A program made the translations under genes and the position numbers. The notes under the pieces were generated by a model, which was given only the letters and a program-made list of their open reading frames with translations, was not told where the DNA came from and did no database searches. From Candidatus Saccharimonadia bacterium (lineage in GTDB: Bacteria; Patescibacteriota; Saccharimonadia; UBA4664; JBBRNT01), in assembly GCA_038230095.1 (NCBI GenBank), contig JBBRNT010000007.1, positions 1 to 57,209 of the forward strand: a DNA stretch of 57,209 nt, in the 5' to 3' direction. Positions 11,336-31,588 of the stretch are shown here, in pieces (the stretch's first letter is position 1; each line of letters opens with the position of its first letter).

Positions 11336-11557
11336 TTATTTCTTTGCTAGGATGCCTAGAACAATCGAGAGAATGAAAACTACTGCCAGCACGATAGTAG
11401 CGTTATAGATGACTTTTTCGGCGCCGCGTTTCGAACGATAGAAATTGCTATCGCCACCAAAGGACATACCCAGACTCTGGCCACGAGACTGCAGCAACAC
11501 TGTGGCGATCATAAGCACGCCACTAATCATGGTCATAATGTTAAAAATTAGCTTCAT
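11336..11557 (-). CDS. secG: Preprotein translocase subunit SecG
   Basis: Two TMs around VLLQSRGQSLGMSFGG...RGAEK. Confidence 0.93.
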   Translation of the reverse strand: MKLIFNIMTMISGVLMIATVLLQSRGQSLGMSFGGDSNFYRSKRGAEKVIYNATIVLAVVFILSIVLGILAKK

Positions 11558-11913
11558 ACGGTCTTTTTCTCCACGAGCAGATCATTTAATAGGTAGTTTA
11601 CGAGCCAGACAATCATCACCGCCCCAATAGCAGACCAGAACGATGTTACGGTAAACTTATGGTAGATGAGCGTTACCAGATAGAGCATAAAACCATTCAC
11701 CACCAGCGTAAAGAGCCCAAGGGTGAGAATAATAGCTGGTAGGGCAAGTACTAAGACAATTGGGCGTATTAGTGCATTGACGAGTGAGAATACCAGTGCC
11801 GCAATGATGAGCACTGCTATGCGATCATCGTACTTAATGCCACTCAGCAAGGCCGCTGCGGCCCAGAGCCCAAGAAAGTTTACTAGCCAACGTAACAGAA
11901 AACGTCGAATCAT
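11554..11913 (-). CDS. Phage holin family 4 (YvlD-like) membrane protein
   Basis: VNALIRPIV...LPAIILTLGLFTLVVNG signature. Confidence 0.9.
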   Translation of the reverse strand: MIRRFLLRWLVNFLGLWAAAALLSGIKYDDRIAVLIIAALVFSLVNALIRPIVLVLALPAIILTLGLFTLVVNGFMLYLVTLIYHKFTVTSFWSAIGAVMIVWLVNYLLNDLLVEKKTV

Positions 11914-13110: not shown

Positions 13111-13295
13111 TAGCGGTGGCCACTACGACGTTGCGGCGCGGCGCTGCGTGGCGAGTTGAGCATTTGGCCCAGCGTCTTAACGCCTGCGCCGCTGACGGGC
13201 ATGCCGGGATTGCGCTTCTTGTCGCGCTCGGCGGCGCGGCGCTCAGCGCGGTTCTGAGGGGTAGTCTCTTCGAGAGGCTCGGTAGTTTCGGTCAT
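13110..13295 (-). CDS. Small hypothetical protein
   Basis: ATGA overlap with the uvrC stop and TAATG overlap with the downstream gene; AGGAG SD. Confidence 0.6.
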   Translation of the reverse strand: MTETTEPLEETTPQNRAERRAAERDKKRNPGMPVSGAGVKTLGQMLNSPRSAAPQRRSGHR

Positions 13296-14767
13296 GTTAT
13301 GTGCTCCTTTATGATTTTGGCCTTCGCCGGCCCAATAATTTGTGCAATTTCTTCTTCGGAGGCCTGGGCTACACCGCGAACGCTACCAAAGGCTTTGACG
13401 AGCCTAGTCCTGGTGGATGGTCCTACGCCTGGAACCTCGTCTAGCTGAGACTTGGTCTGGCGCTTACCGCGCAGTAGGGTGTGGTAGGTGACTGCAAAAC
13501 GGTGGGCTTCATCCCGCACTCGCTGCAGCAATTGTAATACGTGCGAGGTAGGGGGCAAGAGGATAATCTCGAAATCGTAGTTCGCAACCACCCAGGCCTC
13601 GCCCTCGTAGTGCCCGCGCGACAGGGCGGTAGTGCCAGGGCGGCGGCGAATTATCTCCTCTTCCCGCTTGGCGAGACCAAAAGCCGGTATCTGGATACCT
13701 AGCTCATCCATGACAGCCAGGGCAGCGCCCAGCTGCCCCTTGCCGCCGTCGATAAGCAGCAAGTCTGGCTTGCCCCAGTCTACTAGATTCTTGCCGCTAA
13801 AACGGCGGCGGATGACTTCGGCCATATGGGCAAAGTCATTATTACCTGGCAGGCGCATTTTGAAGTGCCGGTACTGGTCGCGGTCCGAGACGCCGTCAGA
13901 GAAGACCACCATGCTAGCTACATTGTCTGAGCCCTGCATATGGCTAATGTCATAGGCCTCGATGCGGCGAGGCAGACCAGGCAGATTGAGCCGCTCGGCT
14001 AGCCCCACTAGGGCCTGGTCGCGCGATAGATCAAACAGTTCTTCATCGCCGAAGATCATCTGCTTGCCCAGCGCACCCAGATCGCGCAACTGGTCACGGT
14101 AACGGGCGGCGGCCTCATAATTCTTGGTCTTGGCGGCCTTGGCCATGTCTTTCTGGATCTCTGTCACCACCTTGCCCTCTTCGCCCTGCAGGTACATAAG
14201 CAGCTTGCGCACGGTCTTCTTGTAGTCGGCCGAGGGTGTGCCTGGGGCCGGCGTAAGGCCCAGCTGGTAGTTCAAGGGGCTCACATGCGGCCAGTTGGGA
14301 TCGCTAATGTAGGGGAATACTCGCCGTAGCAGCTTCATGGCGCGCTTCACAGTATCTGTTGCCGTAAATGGTCCGAAGTACGTGCTCTTATCGTCCATGG
14401 GCCGGCGGACGTAGCTAACCACCGGGTAGGCGTCCTCGGTGGTTATCTTAATGTAGATAAAGTGCTTATCATCCTTGAGATCAATATTGAACTTGGGCCG
14501 GTAGCGCTTAATAAGCTCAGACTCCAGAAATAGCGCCTCTACCTCGCTGCCCACGGTGACCCACTCGGTGTCGGCAATGTTCTCCACCAGAATGGCCGTC
14601 TTGGGATCGCGCAGCTTGGTGTTCTGGAAGTACGATTTGACCCGGTTTTTCAGGACGGCGGCCTTACCAATGTAGATAATCTTACCCTGCGCGTCTTTAT
14701 GAAAGTACACACCGGGTTCGGCGGGAAGGGTTTTGAGCTTGTCCTGGAGTGCTTGGGAGATGACCAT
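13292..14767 (-). CDS. uvrC: Excinuclease ABC subunit C
   Basis: GIY-YIG (PGVY...IYIGKA), UVR domain, RIEAYDISH, PDLLLIDGGKGQL, RDEAHRFA, HhH. Confidence 0.97.
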   Translation of the reverse strand: MVISQALQDKLKTLPAEPGVYFHKDAQGKIIYIGKAAVLKNRVKSYFQNTKLRDPKTAILVENIADTEWVTVGSEVEALFLESELIKRYRPKFNIDLKDDKHFIYIKITTEDAYPVVSYVRRPMDDKSTYFGPFTATDTVKRAMKLLRRVFPYISDPNWPHVSPLNYQLGLTPAPGTPSADYKKTVRKLLMYLQGEEGKVVTEIQKDMAKAAKTKNYEAAARYRDQLRDLGALGKQMIFGDEELFDLSRDQALVGLAERLNLPGLPRRIEAYDISHMQGSDNVASMVVFSDGVSDRDQYRHFKMRLPGNNDFAHMAEVIRRRFSGKNLVDWGKPDLLLIDGGKGQLGAALAVMDELGIQIPAFGLAKREEEIIRRRPGTTALSRGHYEGEAWVVANYDFEIILLPPTSHVLQLLQRVRDEAHRFAVTYHTLLRGKRQTKSQLDEVPGVGPSTRTRLVKAFGSVRGVAQASEEEIAQIIGPAKAKIIKEHIT

Positions 14768-17126: not shown

Positions 17127-19055
17127 TTATACGGAGGAAATAACTAGTTTCGCAATGGCATTTTGCCCGCTTGGTGTTGGGTGAAACGGCGAGTCATTGG
17201 AACGAAATTGGCGATTCACACGAATCGATGGGCCATACACCCATGGGTCGGCGGAACACAACTCATGGCCCTTCATAACATTGGTGATGTCGACAACCTT
17301 CACGTTCGCGTACGAGGCTGCAACCGTTTTGATACTGCCGTTCAGGGCCGTCAGCTCAGATTGGATCCAAGTAATTTCCCGGCGACTGAGGCTAACGATG
17401 TTACCGCCAGGCCGAATATCCACACAATTCCCGGGCTGTGTACTGAACGGATTGAAGTACGTTGTCAGAACCACCTCTGGCACTTTTCCATCTGCTCGAC
17501 CCCGCTGCTGGATTTCATCAAGGACGACCCTAAGACCAGCTGCTTGTAGGCCCATATCTTGGCTGATTTGTGTCGTATTTCTGCATAGTGCACCGGCGAT
17601 GAGCTGGGGCATATAGCAGTCTTGGAGCACGTCCGCGAAGTGAACGTCGTCGGCACCCAGAGTTAGTAGCACAACGTCCGGCTTGAATGCGTCATAGGCA
17701 AGATTTGCTGGCCCATACCGACCATCGGCTGACCCCAGCTGCGGTGGTACCGTCAAACCAGAGTCGAATACTCGACGGCTCATAACGCCGTCTGTAGCCG
17801 ACGAGCCTGTGCACGACAAGAAAAGCGTTTTTGCGGAAAGCGCCTTGGCGACTACCGGTTGGTAGGACTGGTCCGTTCGGTGGCACGCTGTGGCATTTGT
17901 ACTGCCATCATCGATCCATACGCCCATGGGATTCTGGATAGACCAGCTGCTCTGACCGCGCCTGGGGACTACCCAGGTAGGCGAGTACCCTATGCCCTCT
18001 CCGGCGCCCACTGAGTCACCCATCAGGGCAATATGTAGTGGTTCGGCTGGTGGAAGTACGATGGGTGTGCTGCTTGCCACCTGAAAGTTGATGTTGTCGC
18101 CGTTGAAGCCATAGACCTGGGTGAAGTCGGCGCGCGCACCGGTAGCCACATTGACCATGCAGATGTGCGTCCCGCCTTCGGGTACGCCACACTCCGTAGC
18201 CACAAACGCCCCATCGGCGGAAACAGTGACGTTCCAGTCGGTGAGGAGGGGCAGGCTGAACAAGGCCAGGCTACTGCCATCTACCGGGTTTACGGTGTAG
18301 GTGGCGCGGGAGTTGGTGTTGGCGCAGAGACTGTCAAAGATGACCCGCCCGCTGTCCAGGTAGCTGGGCCACCGGTCTAGGCACAGGCCGGTGTCATTGT
18401 TGGTCAGTTGCCGCACGCTGCTCCCATCGACAGCGGACATGATGGAGACGGTTTGCGGGTACTGACCGAACCGGTCGGTGGGGCCGCTGGTGGCGGCCGT
18501 AATGAACACGATCTGACTGTCGTCGGGAGACCAGGCCGGCATGAGGGCCACGCCAGGCTGCGAACCAAGGCTGCGAACGCTAACCGTGAGCACGCCCGTG
18601 GCATCCACGGTGGCTCGGTCGATGCTGCCGGAACCGGCGTCGCCCGTGGCAAACGCAATCTGGGTGCCGCTATGCGACCAAGCTGGCGCACTGGTGACCT
18701 GGTAGGCATAGATGCCGGTACCCAGCTGCTGGGTTACCAGATTGTACAGCGCGAGCTGTCCACTTTGGCTATAAGCCAACCAGGTACCATCTGGCGAGAG
18801 TGCGGGCTGGACGCCGCTACCCGGCACGCTGAGAAGCGTTTTGGGCAGCTGGCCATCATTGTCGTACTCGCGAATGTCTGTGTAGCCGATCTGGGTATCT
18901 GAGCCCGTAGTGAACACCAGCCGATTGATGGCTGGGGCTGCGCCCGCGGCGATGCTTCCCCATGCCGACAAGGCCACGAGCAATCCCAATACAACACAAA
19001 AGACGCCAAAACGGCGCCCTCTCCCAGTCTTTTGGCCTGTCTTTTGGCGCTGCAC
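17127..19055 (-). CDS. Secreted TolB-like (PD40) beta-propeller fused to an SGNH/GDSL hydrolase
   Basis: Signal peptide; PALSPDG, PAWSHSG, PAWSPDD repeats; ALMGDSVGAG, SCTGS, LTLGADD, FHPTPSGQ blocks. Confidence 0.85.
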   Translation of the reverse strand: MQRQKTGQKTGRGRRFGVFCVVLGLLVALSAWGSIAAGAAPAINRLVFTTGSDTQIGYTDIREYDNDGQLPKTLLSVPGSGVQPALSPDGTWLAYSQSGQLALYNLVTQQLGTGIYAYQVTSAPAWSHSGTQIAFATGDAGSGSIDRATVDATGVLTVSVRSLGSQPGVALMPAWSPDDSQIVFITAATSGPTDRFGQYPQTVSIMSAVDGSSVRQLTNNDTGLCLDRWPSYLDSGRVIFDSLCANTNSRATYTVNPVDGSSLALFSLPLLTDWNVTVSADGAFVATECGVPEGGTHICMVNVATGARADFTQVYGFNGDNINFQVASSTPIVLPPAEPLHIALMGDSVGAGEGIGYSPTWVVPRRGQSSWSIQNPMGVWIDDGSTNATACHRTDQSYQPVVAKALSAKTLFLSCTGSSATDGVMSRRVFDSGLTVPPQLGSADGRYGPANLAYDAFKPDVVLLTLGADDVHFADVLQDCYMPQLIAGALCRNTTQISQDMGLQAAGLRVVLDEIQQRGRADGKVPEVVLTTYFNPFSTQPGNCVDIRPGGNIVSLSRREITWIQSELTALNGSIKTVAASYANVKVVDITNVMKGHELCSADPWVYGPSIRVNRQFRSNDSPFHPTPSGQNAIAKLVISSV

Positions 19056-19149: not shown

Positions 19150-20155
19150 TATATTAAGCCCCAGTAGACCTAACACTTTTACTCACGTTAAATATGGGGC
19201 ATGTGCACTATTAATAAACATCTTTCAAAGCAACAACTCATTCAGTACCGCTTGCGGGTATTAAAGGATGTGGAACAGCACGGCGTAGCCGGTACGGCGA
19301 GACGGTTTGGCGTTAGCCGGTTCACTATCTACGCGTGGCAAAAGTCGGTGGAACCGCGTAAGCGGGGGCCTAGAGAAGTAGCCTGGCAGACCGACCCCGA
19401 AACAGAGCGGCGTATCATTCGACTCAAGCGTGCCACCAACTACGGCCCCAAGCGACTCCGGGCCGAGCTGGCACTGGCAGGCGTCATGGTCGGCGAGAAG
19501 GCCATTAGAGGCGTCTTGCAGCGGGCTGGGCTCGTAGTGCACCACACCAAGAAGCGCGTGAAGAAGCAGTACAAGTTCTACGCCCCCTACCCCGGCTACC
19601 GGTTGCAAGTCGACACCAAAGCCGTACCCAACGGGACCGACAAACGGCGCTCCCACAGGCAACAATTCACGGCGATTGATATCGTGAGCAAAATCCGCTT
19701 CTTGGCCATCTACGACTCGCTGTCCAACTACAACTCAATTCAGTTTGTCCGCGACGCCCTGGCCTTCTACACCGATATTGGGATTCATATTGAATGCGTC
19801 CAGACCGACAACCATGCTACCTTTACCAACCTGTACCTAGGGGGCAACAAGAAAGCTGAGCACGAGCTCCGCCGGGTTCATCCACTGACGCAGTTCCTGC
19901 TCGACCAAGGGATTGAGCACAAGCTGTCGCGACCTGGCACCCCGCAACACAACGGATTTGTGGAGCGCAGCCACCGCACGGACGAAGAGGAGTTCTACCG
20001 GAGAGTCGATGTAGTGCCTCTAGACAACGTCCAGCTGCAAGGCGCAATGAAGCGGTGGCAGGATGAATATAATTACATGAGGCTGCATTCTAGCCTAGGT
20101 TATGAGGCTCCCATGCAGCATTACTTGGGTGTATTGCAAACTGGGGCTTAATACA
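19150..20155 (+). mobile_element. IS481-family insertion sequence (1006 bp) with 16-bp terminal IRs and 15-bp flanking direct repeat
   Basis: IRL tatattaagccccagt (19150-19165) vs reverse complement of IRR tgtattaagccccagt (20140-20155); DR attgcatagtgtagc at 19135-19149 and 20156-20170. Confidence 0.9.
19201..20151 (+). CDS. IS481-family DDE transposase
   Basis: HTH (TARRFGVSRFTIYAW), YGPKR, QVDTK, QTDN, PQHNGFVERSHRT, YNxxRxHSSL; single ORF. Confidence 0.93.
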   Translation: MCTINKHLSKQQLIQYRLRVLKDVEQHGVAGTARRFGVSRFTIYAWQKSVEPRKRGPREVAWQTDPETERRIIRLKRATNYGPKRLRAELALAGVMVGEKAIRGVLQRAGLVVHHTKKRVKKQYKFYAPYPGYRLQVDTKAVPNGTDKRRSHRQQFTAIDIVSKIRFLAIYDSLSNYNSIQFVRDALAFYTDIGIHIECVQTDNHATFTNLYLGGNKKAEHELRRVHPLTQFLLDQGIEHKLSRPGTPQHNGFVERSHRTDEEEFYRRVDVVPLDNVQLQGAMKRWQDEYNYMRLHSSLGYEAPMQHYLGVLQTGA

Positions 20156-20172: not shown

Positions 20173-20979
20173 CTATACTGCTGAGGACTTTGGTCGGATA
20201 CTGTGCCTCGGGCTACGAGCGCGGGCGATTTGGACGAGGGTGTAGACACCCCCAGCTAGGCCAGTAAGTAGAGCAAGAGCCCACTTGCCACCCCAAAGCG
20301 GGAGTTGATAGCGCGTGCCATACACTAATATTGGTCGCAATATAATACTACTTTCTAGCGCTGGAGGGGCAATTGATGGCGGAGCGACTGGTGGAGGGGA
20401 CTCTAATGGCGCTGGTAATGGCGTACTTACTACCACCGGCTTGGCCAGTAGTGTAGGCCGTGCGGGCGGTGGTGCAGGTGCCGGGCTCGGTATGGTAAGT
20501 GGCGCGGTATTGCCTGCGACGGTCGAGCCATAGATGGCCACAGTAATCATCATCGGCTGCCCCAAACAGTCCCCCATCCCCTGTGCAAAACCGACATTAC
20601 GGTAGGCACCGGATAGCATATTGGCACGGTGGCCCGGGCTGGCCATCCAGGCATCTACTACAGACTGCGGCGCGGTATAACCACAGGCTAGATTCTCCGC
20701 TACTGCGCGCCAGGGGTAGGCGGCGGCGCTTGCTGCCTCCCCAAAGCTGGTGCCATCCGGCTGAGTGTGGCCAAAGTAGTGGTTTTGCTGCATATTGCTC
20801 AGCCGGGCCGCCGCGGCAGCAGTGAGGCGGGCGTCGAGCGAGAACGGGGCCACACGGCTGGCAGCGCGGGCGGCGTTGGTGGGGCCAAGGAAGTCGGCGG
20901 CCTGGGTGGCCTGGGATAGCAATAACCAGGCGGCGCTAACCGCAATTATTACTCCCCTACCTGTTGTGGGCCCCCTCAT
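20173..20979 (-). CDS. CAP (SCP-like) domain protein with Pro-rich linker and C-terminal TM
   Basis: YFGH, AENLAxG, WMASPGHRANML; start trimmed to ATG 20979. Confidence 0.88.
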   Translation of the reverse strand: MRGPTTGRGVIIAVSAAWLLLSQATQAADFLGPTNAARAASRVAPFSLDARLTAAAAARLSNMQQNHYFGHTQPDGTSFGEAASAAAYPWRAVAENLACGYTAPQSVVDAWMASPGHRANMLSGAYRNVGFAQGMGDCLGQPMMITVAIYGSTVAGNTAPLTIPSPAPAPPPARPTLLAKPVVVSTPLPAPLESPPPVAPPSIAPPALESSIILRPILVYGTRYQLPLWGGKWALALLTGLAGGVYTLVQIARARSPRHSIRPKSSAV

Positions 20980-21035
20980 CTTGTACCCGATTATAGCATA
21001 AGCTCTTGCGCGGTCCCGCTGGCCGGTAGGTACAC

Positions 21036-21093
21036 TTGCGCAATTGTAGGCATTATCGTACGGTAGCCGTACTTTCGATCCCGGGGAGGAACG
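21036..21093 (+). promoter_or_regulatory. Array unit 0 promoter/leader
   Basis: TTGCGC-17-TACGGT, then gatcccggggaggaacg ATG, resembling the leaders of units 1-3. Confidence 0.6.
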
Positions 21094-21426
21094 ATGCACC
21101 ATCTACCAGCTTATGTGGTTGCCATAGTAATACTCGGCGTACTACTAGCCGGTGGGCTGTACGCTCGCCATGGCCGACCGTTTCGCCGTAGTAACCGACT
21201 AGTTAGCAAGGCGCCAGCGGATAACCAGCTCCGTCAGAACGGCTTGGGTAACCGCGCAGCATGGGCCCAAGAAGCCCTGGATGCCAATGACCCAGATGCT
21301 GCACTCCTGGTGCTACTGGCAGAAACGCTAAACCCGTCGTCCAGCCAACCGCCGTTGGAACTGGACCTGCTGCGGCGGCTGCGGCAACTAGCGCTCTCCG
21401 CTCCGTCTGGCGAGAGTACGTCATAA
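21094..21426 (+). CDS. Short single-TM protein, truncated member of the tandem paralog family (unit 0)
   Basis: N-terminal TM; AQEALDANDPDAALLVLLA resembles AEALEREDVTGAVRLLA / AKALTDRDATASLMMLA of units 1 and 3. Confidence 0.65.
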   Translation: MHHLPAYVVAIVILGVLLAGGLYARHGRPFRRSNRLVSKAPADNQLRQNGLGNRAAWAQEALDANDPDAALLVLLAETLNPSSSQPPLELDLLRRLRQLALSAPSGESTS

Positions 21427-21455
21427 TTGCCGCTGCAGCTTGGCTGTGTTATGGT
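21427..21455 (+). promoter_or_regulatory. Promoter for the Cys-rich ORF
   Basis: TTGCCG-17-TATGGT with extended TG. Confidence 0.55.
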
Positions 21456-21508
21456 GGGCCTGCTGAGTAGCACTTCCGCCACTTGCCCATTGAAAAAAGG
21501 AGACTACT

Positions 21509-21919
21509 AACACCAACCAAACTGAACACCTGGCGCTTATACCGCGCCTGATTGCCGGCCTGGCTACGCCAGACCGCTGGAACCCAGCAACCGACGTCTG
21601 GGTGGTCCGCCTGTGGACCTCCCGCGGCGGTGTCGAAATTGGCATGATTGTCCACGATGTTGATGCCTGTGGCTGCTGCGGCGCACGCCGTTTTGTCACC
21701 ATTAGCCCGCGTGGCACCCAAGTCCAACCAGACAAGCGCTGTTGCTTCCAGACACCCGGAGCTGCTCTAGAGCAGCTTATCACCACGAGTGAATTCTACG
21801 CCTTTAACCAGGAATGGTTCCTGCGTAGTCCGCTCACCACCAAGGGGGTTACACCCTATGTCCACCACGGAATGCGCTGGGCTACCCTGCCCAGAGCCAG
21901 ACACGCCATCGCCGCATAG
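21509..21919 (+). pseudogene. Cys-rich hypothetical ORF lacking a start codon after its SD (or a shorter CDS from GTG 21602)
   Basis: AAGGAG at 21497-21502 is followed by actact-AAC-ACC with an open frame to 21919; CGCC and CC motifs; terminator 21931-21958. Confidence 0.5.
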
Positions 21920-21930
21920 CGCGGCACCCT

Positions 21931-21958
21931 AGCCCGGGATCTTCTGATCCCGGGCTTT
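21931..21958 (+). terminator. Intrinsic terminator
   Basis: agcccgggatc-ttct-gatcccgggct-tt. Confidence 0.75.
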
Positions 21959-21986
21959 GACGTTCTTGTGGGGCGTGCAAGGATTG

Positions 21987-22050
21987 TATGCTTGCGAAAT
22001 ATTGCTAACCATTGTAAGGTAACGCCACGATTGGACTCCGGGAAGGGAGC
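21987..22050 (+). repeat. 64-bp promoter+leader repeat, copy 1
   Basis: 63/64 identical to 23040-23103; contains TTGCGA-17-TAAGGT and an AAGGGAG SD. Confidence 0.95.
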
Positions 22051-22054
22051 GAAT

Positions 22055-22966
22055 ATGCATTTCTTGACAAGACACAACTACTTCTACGTCCTACCTGCCG
22101 CGGTAGTCGGCTTCATCGTCGTGCTTGCCCTCGTAATCTGGCTCATCGGCCGGGCCGAGGCGCGGGAGGCTGCCGAGCGGGTCGCGGCGGCGACTGCCAG
22201 GCAGGCCGAGGCAGAAGCTCAGCAGGCCCTGGCAGAGCGGTTTGTGGGTGGCGACCAAACCGCCTATGCAGAGCTAGCCAATCACAACTGGATGCTGGCC
22301 GAACCGAAGACCATTCTGGGCCATCTCGATAGGTTCATTACGGCCAAGTTGACAGTGCCTGGCGATGTCGAGAAATGGCGCGCGGCTGTGGCAGCGCTTG
22401 ACGATGAGACCGCAGGGACTATTCGATACAACCTGTTCGTGCTCTACTCCAATAACGAGGCCTACGGAGTAGCCGACTGCCTGGAAGCAATGGCCGGCAT
22501 CAGCAACGCCGAAATGCTCGCGCAGACCCAAGCCATGCTGGAGCTCAAGATCCAGCAGCTGACCGAGGCGGCTAGCCAGGGTTCGCCAGAGTCCTTTACC
22601 AGCCTCAGGGAGCTTCGTGATCGGTATCGCACCGGGCTCCGTAGCTTGCGCGCCCAGATGCTCCCGCCGTGGGACGACCTGGTGGTGAAGTTCATTGACG
22701 ATCCCGTCTACAACGACTTTGACCACCGCGGCCGCGAGTATGCCAGCGGCGAGCCCCGGCGGCGCACGGCGGAAGCCCTGGAGCGCGAAGACGTGACTGG
22801 GGCCGTGAGGCTGCTCGCTTACCACGATGCTCACCAGCACAAGACCGGCTCGCCCTTCCACATTCCCCAGTACATGGTGGCCCAGCTGGCGCAGATGGTG
22901 GCTCGCCTGAAGGGCCAGGAAACCACCGCCAACGCCCAGGCAGTGGAACTGGCCAAGCACGACTGA
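22055..22966 (+). CDS. Single-TM helical protein, tandem paralog family (unit 1)
   Basis: Start trimmed to ATG 22055; GDxxA...W and WxxLV...PVYxDFD motifs shared with units 2 and 3. Confidence 0.85.
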   Translation: MHFLTRHNYFYVLPAAVVGFIVVLALVIWLIGRAEAREAAERVAAATARQAEAEAQQALAERFVGGDQTAYAELANHNWMLAEPKTILGHLDRFITAKLTVPGDVEKWRAAVAALDDETAGTIRYNLFVLYSNNEAYGVADCLEAMAGISNAEMLAQTQAMLELKIQQLTEAASQGSPESFTSLRELRDRYRTGLRSLRAQMLPPWDDLVVKFIDDPVYNDFDHRGREYASGEPRRRTAEALEREDVTGAVRLLAYHDAHQHKTGSPFHIPQYMVAQLAQMVARLKGQETTANAQAVELAKHD

Positions 22967-22970
22967 GTCC

Positions 22971-23000
22971 TTGAGGCCCCACCATTTGGTGGGGCCTCAA
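22971..23000 (+). terminator. Hairpin closing unit 1
   Basis: ttgaggccccacca-tt-tggtggggcctcaa. Confidence 0.8.
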
Positions 23001-23039
23001 TCATTTTTAGGTACATGCCGACTCATTCACCATGTATGT

Positions 23040-23103
23040 TATGCTTGCGAAATATTGCTAACCATTGTAAGGTAACGCCACGATTGGACTCCGGAAAGGG
23101 AGC
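23040..23103 (+). repeat. 64-bp promoter+leader repeat, copy 2
   Basis: See copy 1; TTGCGA 23045-23050, TAAGGT 23068-23073. Confidence 0.95.
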
Positions 23104-23109
23104 AATAGC

Positions 23110-23934
23110 ATGAGAGACTACATGTGGTGGATAGCAGTGGGTGCAGTGCTTGGCTTCTTCGCAATTCGGGGCGGAGCACGCAGTCGCCGATTGCGTGGAC
23201 TGACACAACTGGCCATCAACGGTGACGCAGCGGCCATAGCCCGCATCAACGCTACGACATGGAAAGGTGGGGGTGCCTACGATGTGGAGAAACTGCAAGA
23301 GTACTTGCTGCTACGCCGCACGCTGGTTACCGACATTGGCACTTGGGCTGCGAGCCTGAGTGAAGCGGACCCGCAAGCGTTGTGGCTGGCATACTCTGCC
23401 GTCAAGGGCGCCTTGGGCAGATACGTCTACCTGCCACGAACGATCAAGCACGACCTGGCACATGAGGTGGGACTGACTATGGCTGATTGCCAGCATCGTA
23501 CGCAGTCTCGGCTGGATGAGCAGGTGCGTACTCTGGCTGACTCCGATCAGCTGACTGCGGCAGAGTTTGCCCAGCTGCGGGCGCTACGAGCTGAGTTGGG
23601 TGACAAATGGTCGACGCTGAAGTTCACTGATTTGGCGAACTGGAACCAGCTGGTGGCAAGCCACATTGCCACGCCGGTCTACGGCGACTTCGACTGGCCC
23701 GAGAGCCTGTTCGTGGAAGTCCACCCGCGGCAGATGGCTGTCATGGCCATCCGGACCGAAGACGTGGTGATCGCCAAGATGCTCCTGGCCTATCTCGACC
23801 ACCAGCGGGTGGTCTACGGCCGAGACCCCCGTATGGCTTTGGGGTCCCAGTTCATCTACGACCTCGCGTGGATGATCGACCGCGTAACCGAGCGACAAGC
23901 TCTGGGCGCCAACAACGAGACCGAGTCCGCCTAG
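23110..23934 (+). CDS. Single-TM helical protein, tandem paralog family (unit 2)
   Basis: GDAAAIARINATTW; WNQLVASHIATPVYGDFDW; ends TESA. Confidence 0.85.
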   Translation: MRDYMWWIAVGAVLGFFAIRGGARSRRLRGLTQLAINGDAAAIARINATTWKGGGAYDVEKLQEYLLLRRTLVTDIGTWAASLSEADPQALWLAYSAVKGALGRYVYLPRTIKHDLAHEVGLTMADCQHRTQSRLDEQVRTLADSDQLTAAEFAQLRALRAELGDKWSTLKFTDLANWNQLVASHIATPVYGDFDWPESLFVEVHPRQMAVMAIRTEDVVIAKMLLAYLDHQRVVYGRDPRMALGSQFIYDLAWMIDRVTERQALGANNETESA

Positions 23935-23945
23935 GCCTCCGTCAA

Positions 23946-23975
23946 GAAGCCCCCGCGAGAAATTGCGGGGGCTTC
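23946..23975 (+). terminator. Hairpin closing unit 2
   Basis: gaagcccccgc...gcgggggcttc followed by aatcatt, as in unit 1. Confidence 0.8.
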
Positions 23976-24018
23976 AATCATTCTGGTATTTAGACAGATC
24001 CGGTTTGTGAAGTTGTTG

Positions 24019-24083
24019 TGCTTGCGCTTAATTACGTATTATTGTACTGTAACCCCACATCGGACTCCGGAAAGGGAGCGAAT
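24019..24083 (+). repeat. Promoter+leader repeat, diverged copy 3
   Basis: TTGCGC-17-TACTGT, then ggactccggaaagggagcgaat ATG. Confidence 0.85.
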
Positions 24084-25046
24084 ATGCGCACATGGATAAT
24101 CATTGGGGTGATTACAGTGGTACTGATCGCCGGGATCAAGGCCTGGGAGGTACTGCGGAAGCGCCGAAAGCAGCGTGCCAAGGCCGAGAAATTGGCCACG
24201 CAGGCCGCCTCGCGGGCTGCCAAGAAAGCCGAGTTTGCTCGCCTGGAAATTCTGAAAGCCAAAGAAACCGAGGAGCAGCTGGCCCTGGCGCAGACGGCAC
24301 TGACCGGGGACCAAGCAGCCTGGGAGGCTCTGAAAACCACACAATGGTTCTACCACGCCAGCGACTTCATCGGCATCGTAGAGCACTACTACTGGTGGCG
24401 AGATAATGGTACGGCGCTGCTGGACGAGTGGCGTGGCGCGATTGCAGACGGTAATATCAACACAGCCATTGCAGTGGCCCGGAAGTACCAGTATGTGGCG
24501 CAGTCGAGCAGGCGGCGTGGTCTGGACGCACGAGAGATCATCATCTCGCTCATGGGGATTGCCCCTGCGGAAGTGCGTGAGCAGACGCTCCTGGCGCTGG
24601 ATGTCTGGATGGCTGCCCAGTGTACAGAGGCGGTGGCCGGATCGGCCGAGGCCTACAAGCGACTCAAGCTCTATCGGCATGAACACAGAACAAAGCCGGG
24701 TTATGCATCTGACGACTACCCGTTTGTCTTCCCCGAAGCTTGGAACAAGGCGGTGACACTGCACGAACCGGTCCCGACCTATGAGGACTTCGACTGGCAC
24801 CACCGCGAACTGCAGGCCGGTGAGCCGCGGATGGCGGCAGCCAAAGCTCTAACTGACCGTGACGCAACTGCATCCCTGATGATGCTGGCCTGGTACAACT
24901 GGCAAACAAAAGCTGGTGCGACGCTCAAAGCTTCGTTCTATATTGAGAGCGAGCTCCGAGCCCAGCTGGCACTGCTCATAGAAGAGCAGCGTGTGGCCAA
25001 TGCGCCACCGGCCTCATCCACTGTTGCGCAGACCGAGTCCGCCTAG
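24084..25046 (+). CDS. Single-TM helical protein, tandem paralog family (unit 3)
   Basis: Start trimmed to ATG 24084; GDQAAWEALKTTQW; WNKAV...PTYEDFDW; ends TESA. Confidence 0.85.
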   Translation: MRTWIIIGVITVVLIAGIKAWEVLRKRRKQRAKAEKLATQAASRAAKKAEFARLEILKAKETEEQLALAQTALTGDQAAWEALKTTQWFYHASDFIGIVEHYYWWRDNGTALLDEWRGAIADGNINTAIAVARKYQYVAQSSRRRGLDAREIIISLMGIAPAEVREQTLLALDVWMAAQCTEAVAGSAEAYKRLKLYRHEHRTKPGYASDDYPFVFPEAWNKAVTLHEPVPTYEDFDWHHRELQAGEPRMAAAKALTDRDATASLMMLAWYNWQTKAGATLKASFYIESELRAQLALLIEEQRVANAPPASSTVAQTESA

Positions 25047-25057
25047 CCGATCTACCA

Positions 25058-25084
25058 AAAAGCCCCACCGCAAGGTGGGGCTTT
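25058..25084. terminator. Bidirectional terminator between unit 3 and uvrA
   Basis: aaagccccacc-gcaa-ggtggggcttt. Confidence 0.85.
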
Positions 25085-25098
25085 CACATTGGTGCACG

Positions 25099-27972
25099 CT
25101 ACTTCTTGGATACTTTGGGCTTTTTCTCGGAAGTATTGGCGGTGGGGGTGTGCTCCCCAGCAAATATGCGGGCTAGATAGCGGCCAGTGTGGGACTCTGG
25201 CACCTCGGCCACCAGCTCCGGTATGCCAGTAGCAATGACTGTACCACCACCGGCTCCGCCTTCTGGACCCATGTCTATGAGCCAGTCGGAGCACTTAATG
25301 ACGTCTAGATTATGCTCAATAACAACCACAGTATTACCGGTATTAACCAATGCATCCAGAACGCCAAGCAGGCGTTTAACGTCTTCAAAATGTAGGCCAG
25401 TGGTAGGCTCATCCAGGATGTACATGGTGCGGCCGGTAGAGCGACGGGCTAGCTCGGTAGCCAGCTTAATGCGCTGAGCCTCACCACCAGAGAGAGTGGT
25501 AGCGGGCTGGCCCAGGCGAATGTAGCCCAGACCTACACTGTTCAGCGTCTCCAGCTTGCGGCGCACAGATGGGATGTTCTCGAAGAAGCCCACGCCCTCT
25601 TCGACTGTCATGTCTAGGATCTGGGAAATGTTCTTGCCCTTATAGGCAATCTCTAACGCCTCGCGGTTGTAGCGGCGGCCCTTGCACTCTTCGCAGGTGA
25701 CATAGACGTCTGGCAGGAAGTGCATTTCAATCTTAATAATACCGTCGCCCCGACAGACTTCACAGCGTCCGCCCTTCACATTGAAGCTAAAGCGGCCAGA
25801 CTTGTAGCCGCGGATCTTGGCCTCGGGAACCTGAGCGAACAGCTCTCGGACATCGCCAAAGATGCCAGTATAGGTGGCGGTATTAGAGCGAGGGGTGCGG
25901 CCGATAGGCGATTGGTCTACGGAAATAACCTTATCCAGGTTCTTCAGACCTTCAATGTCATCGTGCTTGCCTGGTAGCTCACCAGCGCGGTGGAACACCT
26001 GCGAGAGCTTCTTAGCGAGAATGTCGTTGATGAGACTGGATTTCCCGGAACCGGACACGCCGGTGATGGTCACGAGCTTGCCGAGCGGGATTGTAACGTC
26101 AATATTCTGGAGATTGTGCTCTCTGGCGCCGCGAATGACCAGGCTCTTGCCATTACCGGCTCGCCGCTTGGACGGCACAGAGATAGCTAGCTCGCCCGAG
26201 AGGTACTTGCCAGTGAGGCTCTCTGGGTGCTTGCTCAGATTGGCAGGCACGTCGGCTGCCACGACGCGACCGCCGTGCTCGCCGGCGTATGGGCCTATGT
26301 CTATGACGTAGTCGGCGGTTCGGATAGTGTCCTCGTCATGCTCAACGACAATGACGGTATTGCCCAGATCGCGCAGCCGCATGAGCGTCGCGATAAGGCG
26401 ATCGTTATCCCGCTGGTGGAGGCCTATTGACGGCTCATCTAGGATGTAGAGCACCCCCATGAGGCTAGAGCCAATCTGGGTAGCCAGGCGGATACGCTGA
26501 GCCTCGCCGCCGGCTAGGGTATTGGCGCTGCGGTCGAGCGTAAGATAGGACAGGCCCACATCTACCAGGAAGCGCAAGCGCTCTTTGATCTCCTTGAGAA
26601 TCTGGGCAGCAATGAACATTTCGCGGTCGGCCAGCTTAATCGTATCGAAGAACGCAATAGCCCCGCCGATAGATAGCGTGGTCAGGTCCACAATAGATTG
26701 CTTCTCGATGGTAACGGCGAGAATCTCTGGCTTGAGGCGCTTGCCACCACAGACGGGACAGAGGTGCTCCGCCATGTACTTCTCAATCTCGCGACGGACG
26801 AAGTCCGAGTCGGTCTCATGGTAGCGGCGCTCCATATTGGGAATAACGCCTTCGTAAGTGGTGTGGTAGGTGCGTCCACCGGGGCCCTTAATTGGGATAC
26901 TGGTCTCATCGGCACCGTAGAGGATGGTCTTCAGATCGGCTGGTTTCATCTCGGATACTGGGGTGTCCAGTGAGAAGCCGTAGTGGGCTGCCACCCCAGT
27001 AAGCAGCTTGGTGTACCAGGTGGCGCGGGCGGTAGTACGGCTCCATGGGCGAATAGCGCCCTCATTGATGGTAAGGCGACGGTTGGGGATGACAATCTCT
27101 GGGTCTACCTCCAGGCGGGTACCGAGCCCGGTGCAGTGAGGACAGGCACCGTGCGGCGAATTAAAGGAGAAGTTGCGTGGAGCTATTTCCGGAAGACTTA
27201 TTTCGCGGTGTACCGGGCAGGCAAAGTGCTCGGAAAAGACCTGTTCCTTGCCGGTGTCTGACTCTACCACCTTCACAATCCCCTCGCCCAGAGCCAGGGC
27301 GTGCTCCACTGACTCGGTAAGCCGTTGCTGGATTTCGGCATCTATCATAAGCCGGTCAACCACGGCCTCTATAGTGTGCTTTTTCTGCTTATCTAGGTCT
27401 GGGAACTCATCGAGCTCGTACATGGTGCCGTTAATTCGTACACGAGTGTAACCGGCCTTGCGGAGCTCTGTGGCAACGCCGCGATGCTCACCCTTTTTGT
27501 CGTCAACAACGGGCGCCAGAATAAGGACCTTGGTGTCGGCCGGCAGCTCTAGAATTTGGTCGACAATCTGGCCCGTGGTCTGGCGGGTGACCTCGCGGCC
27601 ACAGATAGGACAGTGCGGGATACCAACCCGGGCATAGAGCAAGCGCAAGTAGTCATAAACCTCCGTGACGGTACCCACCGTGGAGCGTGGGTTGCGCGAT
27701 GAGCTCTTCTGATCGATAGATATGGCGGGTGATAGCCCGTCTATCTGGTCTACGTCCGGCTTTTCCATGAGCCCCAGGAACTGACGGGCATAGGCAGACA
27801 GGCTCTCGACATAGCGGCGCTGGCCCTCTGCATAGATGGTATCGAACGCCAAGCTGGACTTCCCAGAACCAGATAGACCAGTGATAACCACAAGCTTGTC
27901 GCGCGGTATATCTACATCTATATTCTTTAGGTTGTGCTCTCTAGCACCCCGTACCCGAATACGATCTTGCAC
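25099..27972 (-). CDS. uvrA: Excinuclease ABC subunit A
   Basis: GAREHNLKN, two Walker A motifs ([16 protein letters not shown]), Zn fingers, LSGGEAQR; GTG start 27972 with GGAGA SD. Confidence 0.98.
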
Positions 27973-28113
27973 CCTATTTCTCCGATTCAACTAGGGATAA
28001 AGTATACGCGGCTGTCAAGACTTTGGCAATGCTCAGTAGTGGGACCGGCCAACGGGAGTGGCCACAGGATGGGCTGGTCTGATATACTTATGGTAATTTA
28101 CGAGGGATACTCC

Positions 28114-28658: not shown

Positions 28659-29570
28659 CTAGGGGGTCAATTGCAAAATAGCTTCGATGTCGAGCCTAGT
28701 GTTGGGTTGCCCGTAGCCAAGATGGTTCAGGCTCACCTTACGCAGCTCGAGCTGCTGCAACAGGGCATTTGAGTTCCCCTCCCCTGCCGGAACAGCGGCA
28801 ACGGCTTCTAGCGCGGCTTCATAGCTCGGGTTCTGTCTTTGCTGCTTGAGTACCTGAGCCGCCTCCGGGATCTGATCAACAGTGATGTAGCCACTACGAA
28901 CTAGTTCATTCTCCAGTACGTAGTGCGCCAAGCCTTCGGCAAATCGTTCGGATGCTATGCGCGGCTCACTGACCGGGGATGCTGGAAGTCTGTATGCCTC
29001 AACTACACCGCTCTCGATAATTTTTTGATCAAACCGCTCATATGTAGGCGTCGGCCATAGTTCGGCTACCGAAGGATGCGGTGGGATACTTGGCATGACA
29101 TACTTGTAGGCGTTTTCAATACCGTGGCCCAACTCATGCGCCGTAATGTGGAGTAACGCTAGTCGGTGAGCCTCGGCTTGGGACAGATCGACGCCCAGGA
29201 CGGCGAGGAGCGCTATCGTCTCGCCCTGAAACTTCTCAACACCAGCCTGCGTGACTTCCATGACGAAACTCTCAGGCCGTATGGTCCTGTCCTCGGTGTG
29301 GGTTATCTCTCCATGCGTGATAGCATCGTGAACAAACCTAGCGTCATACTCGTGGGCGGCAAATATGCGTACAGCGTCTGGCCTAGTTTGTAGACTATCG
29401 ACAAATTGCTGAAATGCTTCACCAGTACGCTCACCAAGTGGGAGCTCAGCGATGGCTGCTGCCGCATCACTGATCATTTCCCGTGTATCCACAGCTAGCT
29501 CGCGGCCAGCCTCAATGTCTATTTCACGGCTCTGTGGGGCCGGCTCCGGCTCGAATATCTCTCCACTCAC
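28659..29570 (-). CDS. Putative zincin-type metallopeptidase (HExxH)
   Basis: ITAHELGHG plus downstream SERFAEG; GTGA overlap with the uvrB stop. Confidence 0.65.
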
Positions 29571-31588
29571 GCGCGCAAATTCCTTTTCCGCGTCGTGCCC
29601 TTCTTACGTGGCTGGGGGTCGATGATAGAGTTCTTGATCTCCTCAATTTGGTCGCGCAGCAGGGCCGCCTTCTCGAACTGTAGATTCTGGGCGGCAAGCT
29701 CCATTTGATCGTTCAGCTGTTTAACTAACTGGAGGCGGTCTTCCTTGGGGATCTCTTCGACTTTGAACTCCTTGGCGTCGGCCTTGGCAGCACGCTCGGC
29801 CTCATTGAGCCGCTCGGCTTGGGCCTTTTTGATGCCCTCAGGGGTAATGCCATGCTCCACATTGTAGGCCTCTTGGATGGCGCGGCGCTCGGTGGTGGTA
29901 TCTATAGCCGCCTGCATGGAGCGGGTGGTACGATCGGCGTACATAATGACACGGCCCTCCACGTGGCGGGCAGCGCGGCCAATAGTCTGCATAAGCGAGC
30001 TCTCATTGCGCAGGAAGCCCTCCTTATCGGCATCAAGAATGGCAACCAGTGAAACTTCGGGTAGGTCCAGGCCCTCACGCAGCAGATTGATGCCTACAAT
30101 GACGTCGTACACACCCAGCCGCAGATCGGCCAGAATGTCCGTGCGCTCCAGGGTCTGGATTTCCGAGTGTAGGTACTGGACCTTTATGCCCAGCTCCTTC
30201 AGGTACTCGGTAAGGTCCTCGGACATGCGCTTGGTGAGGGTAGTCACCAAGGCACGCTGGCCCTTGGCGGTGACGGCGCGGATTTCTGCCACTAGGTCGT
30301 CTACCTGGTTATTGATAGGCCGGACAGTAATTTGCGGGTCGAGCAGGCCGGTCGGGCGAATGATCAGGCGCACTACCTGCTGGCTGCGGCTGAGCTCATA
30401 CTCGGCAGGGGTGGCAGAAACGTAGATGACCTGATTAATGTGGTTGTCGAACTCGGCAAACTTCAGCGGCCGGTTGTCTAGCGCACTCGGCAGGCGGAAG
30501 CCGTAATCGACCAGGGTAGTTTTGCGGGCTCGGTCGCCATTGAACATGCCCCGTACTTGGGAGACAGAGATGTGGCTCTCGTCTATAAACATGAGTGAGT
30601 CATCGGGGAAGTAGTCGAGCAGGGTAGCTGGCTGCTCACCCGGCTCACGCTCACTGAGATAGCGCGAGTAGTTTTCTATGCCGGGGACAAAGCCGGTCTG
30701 TTCGAGCATTTCCAGATCATACTTGGTGCGCTGCTCTAGACGCTGGGCCTCTAGGAGCTTGCCCTCCTCGCGCAGTTGCGGCACGCGCGCGTACAGCTCA
30801 TCGCGAATCTTGGCGATAGCACCCTGCATTTTCTCCTGGGGCGTCACAAAGTGCTTACCGGGGAAGATCTTGATAGCCGTAGGCTCACTTAAGACCTCAC
30901 CGGTGAGCGGATCTACTTCACGGATGCGCTCAATGGTGTCGCCAAAGAACTCTAGCCTGTAGGCAGTCTCGGCTCCCACCGGGTAGATCTCTACCACATC
31001 GCCGCGAACCCGGAACTTGCCGCGGGAGAAATCGGTATCATTGCGCTCGTACTGAATGTCATTGAGCTGGCGCAGGAACTTGTCGCGCTTGCGCAGCTCG
31101 CCCTTGGCCAGATCAATGGTAAGCGCCGTATAGTCCTGGACATTGCCCAGACCATAGATGCAGCTGACCGAGGCAACAATTAGCACGTCTTTGCGGGTAA
31201 GCAGGCTCATGGTAGCAGCGTGCCGGAGGCGGTCGATCTCCTCATTGATAGAGGAGTCTTTCTCAATGTAGGTGTCGCTACGGGGTATATAGGCCTCAGG
31301 CTGGTAGTAGTCGTAGTAGCTCACAAAGTACTGCACCGCATTTTTCGGGAAGAAAGTCTTGAACTCTGTGTAGAGCTGGGCCGCTAGCGTCTTGTTGTGG
31401 GACAGAACCAGGGTGGGCTTTTGCTCCTGGGCCACAATGTTGGCCATGGTAAATGTCTTACCTGAGCCGGTCACACCGAGGAGGGTCTGCTCCCGGTCGC
31501 CAGCATGCAAACCCGCCAGGAGCTGCTCTATAGCCCGTGGCTGATCGCCCGTAGGCTGGTATTTGGATACAAGTTCAAATTGAGACAT
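29567..31588 (-). CDS. uvrB: Excinuclease ABC subunit B
   Basis: [43 protein letters not shown]-terminal UVR. Confidence 0.98.

Follow-up and report, generated by a model that had tools for sequence, protein, structure and literature searches.

A tandem array of three paralogous genes

The stretch of DNA analysed here, referred to below as the window, comprises 57,209 nucleotides of contig JBBRNT010000007.1 from the assembly of a Candidatus Saccharimonadia bacterium (GCA_038230095.1). It contains three co-oriented genes, U1, U2 and U3, which lie between a gene for a CAP-domain protein and uvrA and encode members of a protein family that has no name. BLASTP comparisons indicate that the three are true paralogues, with identities of 27% between U1 and U3 (E 9e-23), 26% between U1 and U2 (E 2e-13) and 35% over 55 residues between U2 and U3 (E 3e-8), and they are the only copies of the family in the genome of 963,013 bases. 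An earlier note on this DNA, made from the letters alone, had reported four co-oriented open reading frames, starting at 21094, 22055, 23110 and 24084, as strongly diverged, stand-alone cassettes. The open reading frame listing contains all four, the significant alignments at 26-35% identity are those of strongly diverged copies, and U1, U2 and U3 each possess a promoter-like motif, a leader and a hairpin of their own, as the cassette description requires. The features of the locus are as follows.

21036..21064, + strand: promoter-like motif of U0, TTGCGC-N17-TACGGT, which aligns with the other three
21094..21426, + strand: U0, 110 residues; N-terminal membrane helix, basic stretch and short helical tail
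21503..21919, + strand: intervening open frame, stop to stop, first GTG at 21602; five Cys; not of the family
21931-21956: hairpin after the intervening open frame, -25.1 kcal/mol, z -3.9
21992..22020, + strand: promoter-like motif of U1, TTGCGA-N17-TAAGGT
22021..22054, + strand: U1 leader with GGACTCCGGGAAGGGAGC; ribosome-binding site GGGAG
22055..22966, + strand: U1, 303 residues; membrane helix at about 13-31, 35-residue helical linker, all-helical signature domain
22971..23000, + strand: U1 terminator hairpin, then a T-run, -28.3 kcal/mol
23045..23073, + strand: promoter-like motif of U2, identical to that of U1
23074..23109, + strand: U2 leader with GGACTCCGGAAAGGGAGC
23110..23934, + strand: U2, 274 residues; weak or short membrane helix, 15-residue linker, same helical domain
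23946..23975, + strand: U2 hairpin, lacking a T-run, -28.6 kcal/mol, z -5.1
24022..24050, + strand: promoter-like motif of U3, TTGCGC-N17-TACTGT
24051..24083, + strand: U3 leader with GGACTCCGGAAAGGGAGC
24084..25046, + strand: U3, 320 residues; membrane helix, 52-residue charged linker, same helical domain
25059..25084, no strand assigned: hairpin between the convergent U3 and uvrA, -26.6 kcal/mol, z -5.4; T-run on the uvrA strand

The coding DNA of U1-U3 is saturated, and the DNA upstream of the genes is far better conserved. Nucleotide identity among the coding sequences is 0.39-0.43, falling to 0.32-0.38 at third codon positions, close to the value of about 0.3 given by base frequencies alone. 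Of the 75 bases upstream, 87% are identical between U1 and U2, 72% between U1 and U3 and 71% between U2 and U3, and the first pair share a block of 73 bases that is 93% identical. The motif that the earlier note had placed before each frame, TTGCG[AC]-N17-TAn[GT]GT, occurs five times in the genome (both strands, 963 kb); as four of these occurrences are the sites before U0-U3, the claim holds at the level of the motif. The related leader described in the same note is likewise a property of U1-U3, as the element GGACTCCGGRAAGGGAGC is found in the genome only before these genes (three of three) and a genome-wide search gave no further copies. Nor did GGACTCCGGRAAGGGAGC occur in a comparable position elsewhere in 53 genomes of the order when up to two mismatches were allowed. 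Four other matches resembling it were terminator hairpins in the genomes G006 and G016, and sites in G001 and G035 that have no start codon within 15 bases downstream. The two hairpin loci, L034 in G006 and L033 in G016, come from one genus and share an identical 150-base stretch around a terminator hairpin with a GNRA loop, GGACTCCC-GAAA-GGGAGT followed by a T-run; this stretch, which turned up through its resemblance to the leader, is unrelated to the family.

Retention of the leader in U1, U2 and U3 suggests a shared cis-regulatory function, and we propose that the three genes are co-regulated because nearly the same promoter and leader sequences would drive their expression. Recent gene conversion, in turn, is suggested by the promoter spacer, which is identical in U1 and U2. 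In U1 the ribosome-binding site could be masked by a stem of four CUCC/GGAG pairs, which has a folding energy (-9.6 kcal/mol) within the shuffle range and shows no covariation. A scan of the region for consensus sigma-70 promoters returned none, and the promoters are therefore inferred at the level of the motif. In relatives, the family gene is preceded by -10 elements of broadly similar appearance (TG-TAnnnT-like). An Rfam scan of 20900-25200 detected no RNA family, giving two sub-threshold chance matches. A search of sequencing runs located the DNA in the probable source sample alone and listed no RNA run.

GC hairpins do end U1, U2 and U3, as had been reported; their z values are about -5, none of 200 shuffles was as stable, and a T-run on the + strand follows that of U1 only. 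After the U1 and U2 hairpins lies a 20-base repeat that is 85% identical (22986-23005 and 23963-23982), and an exact 17-base repeat lies at the very ends of the U2 and U3 coding sequences, stop codons included (23918-23934 and 25030-25046), both proteins ending in ...TESA. Inspection by eye shows the hairpins between the units to be simple GC stems devoid of integron attC core sites, for which no dedicated search was run, and the sole recombinase near the array is a DDE (rve) transposase.

What U0 has in common with U1-U3 is the promoter motif and, in the protein, a membrane helix at the N-terminus with a basic stretch after it. No hairpin follows it. BLASTP of U0 against U1, U3 and the canonical member P0002 gave E values of 0.12 to 12, hhalign against the family a probability of 6%, the full family profile no match, and a word-based search of 5.8 billion proteins only U0 itself. 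A local family hidden Markov model (HMM) scored 6.8 bits over profile positions 16-62, which cover the membrane helix, the basic stretch and an AE-GD-like helix and exclude the C-terminus; none of 500 shuffles reached this score, a weak control since shuffling destroys the membrane helix. At most, U0 is possibly the N-terminal remnant of a family copy that has kept its promoter. The open frame between U0 and U1 contains five Cys, including CGCC and CC, and has a GC content at third codon positions (GC3) of 0.64. At about 21496 lies AAGGAG, which resembles a ribosome-binding site but is not accompanied by a canonical start codon at the normal spacing. The frame is unmatched by the family HMM, and the word-based search of the same 5.8 billion proteins returned no homologue. 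As U0 is at best a putative family member and this frame, with its own hairpin, separates U0 from U1, we take the array proper to be U1-U3. Thus, the original description of the locus stands for the paralogy, motifs, leaders and hairpins of U1-U3, and fails where it assigned to U0 the C-terminal module of the family in addition to the membrane helix.

Family membership, distribution and divergence

A family profile (A5) was built from nine sequences, the three window copies and six relatives from the same order. Searched against 1,835,955,588 cluster representatives, it matched 304 at E <= 1e-3, 224 at E <= 1e-10 and 36 at E <= 1e-30, mostly proteins of 270-335 residues aligned end to end. U1, U3 and U2 match the profile at E 1.3e-48, 5.3e-46 and 3.3e-38, respectively, with the signature residues W206, P217, F222, A241 and A255 present, and all the shared features listed in the earlier note (the membrane helix, GDxxA...W, WxxxV...P[VT]YxDFD[WH] and the C-terminal helix) are found in the three copies.

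The view that the family is unassigned was upheld, as no Pfam, NCBIfam, PHROG or PADLOC model matched at threshold. The best Pfam-A and NCBIfam scores were those of OAD_gamma (15.8 bits against a cut-off of 27) and TIGR01195 (19.9 against 36.05), both of them short alignments to the membrane helix. In a Pfam scan of 113 members no family was matched by more than one of them, and none matched a TPR or Sel1 model at E <= 0.01. A sequence profile search of the PDB returned no relative (best E 0.004, to de novo designs and the membrane helices of ion channels), and a word-based search of 5.8 billion proteins with U1 found none beyond U1 itself. In a cluster look-up no source named any family member. 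The three carrier records that bear a name are metagenome-assembled genomes labelled Candidatus Saccharimonadales, Candidatus Saccharibacteria and Candidatus Parcubacteria. Literature searches for such a tandem family in Saccharibacteria, one of them extending to titles and the openings of abstracts, found nothing; with no family name to search by, this does not establish absence from print. The family is thus real, undescribed, lineage-restricted and fast-evolving, and the profile searches indicate that, as far as they reached, it is confined to Saccharibacteria-type Patescibacteria.

Within that range the family is rare. It was detected in 15 of 53 genomes sampled from the order (E <= 1e-5), in 21 of 401 sampled evenly from the class (E <= 1e-10) and in 7 of 401 sampled evenly from the phylum (E <= 1e-5), the genome studied here being counted each time; two of the six other carriers in the phylum sample match over most of the profile. 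In the class sample, the order accounts for 13 carriers among its 52 other genomes, and the remaining orders for 7 among 348. The suggestion of an expandable repertoire finds no support in this sample, as each of the 20 other carriers, among 400 other genomes, has one full copy and only the present genome has three. A second match in one carrier, G047, seen at a looser cut-off, covers profile positions 4-79 only, and a second open reading frame, of 292 residues, that adjoins the family gene in G035 proved to be unrelated. No homologue was found on mobile elements (50,697 phage records, 72,556 plasmids and viral contigs).

In relatives the neighbours of the family gene are housekeeping genes that differ from genome to genome: a D-Ala-D-Ala carboxypeptidase gene with those for ScpB and Der (G010), a class A penicillin-binding protein gene (G021), a glycosyltransferase gene (G023), the L3 and L4 genes with those for CutA and RarA, a cytidylate kinase gene, the GAPDH gene with that for RpiB, and others. 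The CAP-domain neighbour is retained only in G001, a genome of the same taxonomic family, where a single copy, lacking the membrane helix, lies between the CAP gene and uvrC.

In the window itself the CAP/YkwD-like secreted protein (20173-21102, - strand) has a proline-rich linker and a C-terminal membrane helix. Its listed start overlaps that of U0; a signal peptide beginning at Met42 places the real start probably near 20979, which would leave a divergent intergenic region of about 115 bases containing the U0 promoter motif. The rve-type (DDE) transposase (19201-20148, + strand), which has helix-turn-helix domains, is single-copy in the genome and is flanked by the CAP gene and that of a 642-residue secreted protein (17127-19055, - strand) in which PD40 beta-propeller repeats are joined to a GDSL lipase/acylhydrolase domain; the transposase may relate to the difference in gene order from G001. 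The genes uvrC (13295-14767), uvrA (25099-27990) and uvrB (29570-31588), all on the - strand, fall within 18 kb, with unrelated genes, including the array, between them. A Phage_holin_4_2 membrane protein (11557-11913, - strand; E 3e-28) is encoded in surroundings that are otherwise non-phage.

In quick maximum-likelihood trees U1, U2 and U3 form one clade with P0009 and P0051 (SH-aLRT 84 with 113 rows and 91 with 42 rows, neither value starred). P0009, which comes from another organism and was found on contigs of up to 1226 bases, aligns with U3 over 320 residues, free of gaps, at 59% identity. As P0009 is an orthologue of U3, the triplication predates the split between the two organisms, and U3 is under purifying selection. 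A search of genome and metagenome contigs for loci related to both U3 and P0009 found nothing. The frames of U1-U3 are all intact, at 274-320 codons, and their GC3 of 0.69-0.77 resembles that of other genes of the genome. Between this genome (G000) and G001, UvrC is 71% and the CAP protein 46% identical, and the family member reaches 31% over only 85 residues; as it diverges so far beyond the other two, the family evolves fast.

Architecture and topology of the family

The full AlphaFold2 model of U1 consists entirely of helices (predicted local distance difference test, pLDDT, 85; predicted template-modelling score, pTM, 0.66), with a single helix at residues 8-64, containing the membrane helix and the charged linker, and a helix bundle after it. 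Residues 150-303, modelled from a 129-row alignment, gave a pLDDT of 92.3 and a pTM of 0.83. The architecture of the family, as predicted by these models, is an extreme N-terminal membrane helix, a variable charged helical linker and an all-helical domain of about 235 residues. Counted between the membrane helix and the conserved Gly of the AE-GD motif, the linkers of U2, U1 and U3 have 15, 35 and 52 residues, respectively. As the range for the family is 15-54 (median 34, n = 71), with U2 at the minimum, the copies in the window cover nearly all of it. Elsewhere lengths are constant, with 140-145 residues from that Gly to the Trp and 96-100 from the Trp to the C-terminus.

The family signature is P..W(N).LV....P...(D)F....G..R..A..A....LA(YCN). 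Columns conserved in at least 90% of members are, in U1 numbering, P203, W206, P217, F222, G232, A238, A241 and A255, the next best being V210, R235 and L254; the Cys and Asn of the final motif are found in 63% and 62% of members, respectively, and the Cys is absent from the window clade and from the G001 copy. There is good support in this pattern for the view that the conserved positions (W, P, F, G and A) are structural and not catalytic, which points to a non-enzymatic role.

Neither model of U1 found a convincing fold relative. Foldseek searches of the PDB with the full and C-terminal models gave no match at E <= 0.001, and VIA-align against 48,161 chains peaked at Z 7.1 and 7.5, respectively, values within the noise for helical proteins. 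The viral structures in BFVD returned no match, and the best score in the ESM Atlas, 0.78, is below the level of a lead. Prediction of a U1 homodimer (two copies, alignment A5) scored 0.00, which counts neither way.

A hydrophobic helix is found at the N-terminus of 107 of 150 listed representatives (median start, residue 3), and in all 107 the 15 residues after the helix contain more Lys and Arg than the 15 before it (mean 5.45 against 0.21). U2 has a short hydrophobic segment, with a score under the threshold used. Among the full-length listed members 34 lack a membrane helix, and at least 17 of these also lack a signal peptide, their first residues forming a basic stretch (MF[GF]KRRR-like). 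A subclade of helix-less proteins (P0015, P0021, P0024, P0026, P0034, P0040 and others) is well supported, with SH-aLRT values of 97-99. The charge distribution and the existence of members that lack the membrane helix make it a strong inference that the N-terminus is outside and the helical domain in the cytoplasm, as predicted.

Proposed role and comparison with known systems

The reading that we favour, with a probability of about 0.5, is that U1-U3 are membrane-tethered cytoplasmic adaptors or scaffolds, non-enzymatic and co-regulated, that arose by an old, lineage-specific tandem triplication. A gene of this fast-evolving family would have been triplicated long ago in the present lineage, and the three copies would be expressed together through their near-identical promoter and leader elements. 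The membrane helix would anchor each protein, and the conserved C-terminal helical module would retain a partner on the cytoplasmic face of the membrane. As the copies differ mainly in surface residues and linker length, their partners, or the distances from the membrane at which they act, would probably differ as well. It should be emphasized, however, that an adaptor role for such partners is weakly suggested by these features, and that several observations weigh against this reading. No fold relative backs an adaptor role, the best, the C-terminal domain of CarD (4kmc), lying under the noise level. The patchy spread of the family (13 of 52 genomes of the order, 7 of 348 in the rest of the class) would suit an accessory, possibly conflict-related gene equally well. 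The window clade, which has lost the LAYCN Cys and other polar positions, may thus have a function unlike that of the other members. The promoter spacer, 100% identical between U1 and U2, looks more like the outcome of recent gene conversion than of selection. Finally, partner binding and expression are proposals, and the topology is a prediction. A bolder extension, to which we attach little likelihood, is that the three co-regulated copies are graded scaffolds that would position different partners at set depths below the membrane, constituting a Saccharibacteria-specific organiser of the envelope or host-attachment zone that the leader, with its CUCC pairing, switches on together.

It could be argued that the proteins are membrane-tethered regulators of division or envelope synthesis, that is, specialised adaptors whose partner is a cytoskeletal or cell-wall enzyme. 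EzrA (PF06160), the FtsZ regulator of Firmicutes, has one N-terminal membrane helix, almost no outside part and cytoplasmic helical bundles, while LapB/YciM joins an N-terminal membrane anchor to cytoplasmic TPR-like helical-hairpin modules for protein binding. The family would share the topology class of EzrA, spectrin and plakin repeats and TPR-like proteins recur among its weak fold matches (Z 5-7), EzrA itself is not matched in this genome, and cell-wall genes adjoin the family gene: the carboxypeptidase gene in G010, the penicillin-binding protein gene in G021, the glycosyltransferase gene in G023 and the CAP/YkwD-like gene in G000 and G001. These neighbours, however, are not conserved, sequence searches matched neither EzrA nor a TPR family, the rate of evolution is high, and occurrence in 21 of 401 genomes of the class would be odd for a core division factor. 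We consider this possibility unlikely.

Comparably unlikely is a conflict system, in which the products of the array would confer immunity to interbacterial toxins or, anchored in the membrane, act against phages, diversifying in an arms race. Diverged tandem paralogues, fast evolution, a patchy distribution and the transposase and secreted GDSL lipase encoded upstream would be in keeping with such a system. In contrast, PADLOC-DB gave no match for U0-U2 and for U3 only PDC-M11A (E 0.009, 12.9 bits, 44 residues), with no partner genes nearby; PHROG matches were limited to E >= 0.014 and to the membrane helix or low complexity; the searches of phages, plasmids and viral contigs were empty; in relatives the one copy lies among housekeeping genes and is accompanied by neither a toxin nor a nuclease gene; and the transposase is single-copy and outside the array. 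The immunity or anti-phage role offered in the earlier note thus has no positive support.

Far less probable is the proposal, made in the same note, that the proteins are host-contact factors, the helix acting as a signal anchor and the domain being exposed at the surface. Saccharibacteria are epibionts, the CAP protein encoded next to the array is secreted, and a predicted membrane helix is present in 76 of the 106 families enriched in the candidate phyla radiation (CPR) according to PMC6744442. The positive-inside rule, however, is obeyed in the opposite sense by all 107 anchored members, some members, including that of G001, have neither a membrane helix nor a signal peptide, and the proteins contain no Cys pairs, repeats or adhesin-like domains. 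Least credible of all is that the array is decaying duplicate DNA devoid of function: U0 does look like a remnant and several conserved polar residues are missing from the window clade, but the three intact frames keep the structural signature and a GC3 typical of the genome, U3 has a gap-free orthologue at 59% identity, the regulatory DNA is conserved and the genome, at 963 kb, is streamlined. What survives of the earlier interpretation, therefore, is an unassigned and diverged family in which each unit has its own promoter-like motif, leader and hairpin; the expandable, host-contact and immunity or anti-phage attributions are not supported.

If the proteins are indeed tethered adaptors, EzrA and LapB/YciM are the closest analogues in architecture. 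With EzrA the family would have in common the N-terminal membrane helix and an all-helical cytoplasmic domain. EzrA, however, has about 560 residues and five spectrin-like repeats, as against the 274-320 residues of U1-U3; PF06160 matches neither U1-U3 nor the 113 family members nor anything else in the genome; and the matches of the family to the spectrin-like repeat fold reach only Z 5-6. The resemblance to LapB/YciM lies in the combination of membrane anchor and helical modules, and TPR-like proteins (NrfG, PlcR, NprR and 14-3-3) recur among the weak matches; the difference is that none of the 113 members matches a TPR or Sel1 model, and that the family lacks a rubredoxin domain or any other second domain.

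CarD, a soluble protein whose N-terminal domain is Tudor-like, binds RNA polymerase. Its C-terminal domain (4kmc) gave the best superposition of residues 230-303 of U1, the most conserved part of the protein (Z 7.5, root-mean-square deviation 1.7 A, 68 of 79 residues), and the only geometrically tight Foldseek row (TM-score 0.59 on the target, E 2.6, probability 0.72, identity 12-18%). The Z score, however, is within 1 of those of unrelated rows (the next being 6.8) and below the noise level of the tool for helical proteins, and the Tudor-like domain is absent from the family; the likeness is that of a common three-helix arrangement and is no evidence of relationship. Tandem arrays of immunity genes are known next to polymorphic toxins, as in the case of EsaG/DUF600, and these too consist of diverged paralogues encoding small helical proteins. 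In contrast with such arrays, the present one has no adjoining toxin gene, the family is single-copy in 20 other carriers, and libraries of defence and phage proteins gave no match.

In the tiny genomes of Patescibacteria a large proportion of the genes is without an assigned function. One such family is now defined by a profile, a confident model, a predicted topology and a taxonomic range as rare, fast-evolving and normally single-copy, and the attractive reading of the array as a surface or defence repertoire has been removed as unsupported. The conservation of regulatory DNA beside saturated coding DNA, together with the graded linkers, leads to hypotheses that are testable in cultivable Saccharibacteria with a member of the family. 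Meheust et al. 2019 (PMC6744442) describe the CPR-enriched families referred to above as mostly poorly annotated. The family defined here resembles them, as there described, in being lineage-restricted and unannotated, with one predicted membrane helix, and differs in that those families are widespread in the CPR, whereas the present one is rare, being found in 7 of 401 genomes of the phylum sample.

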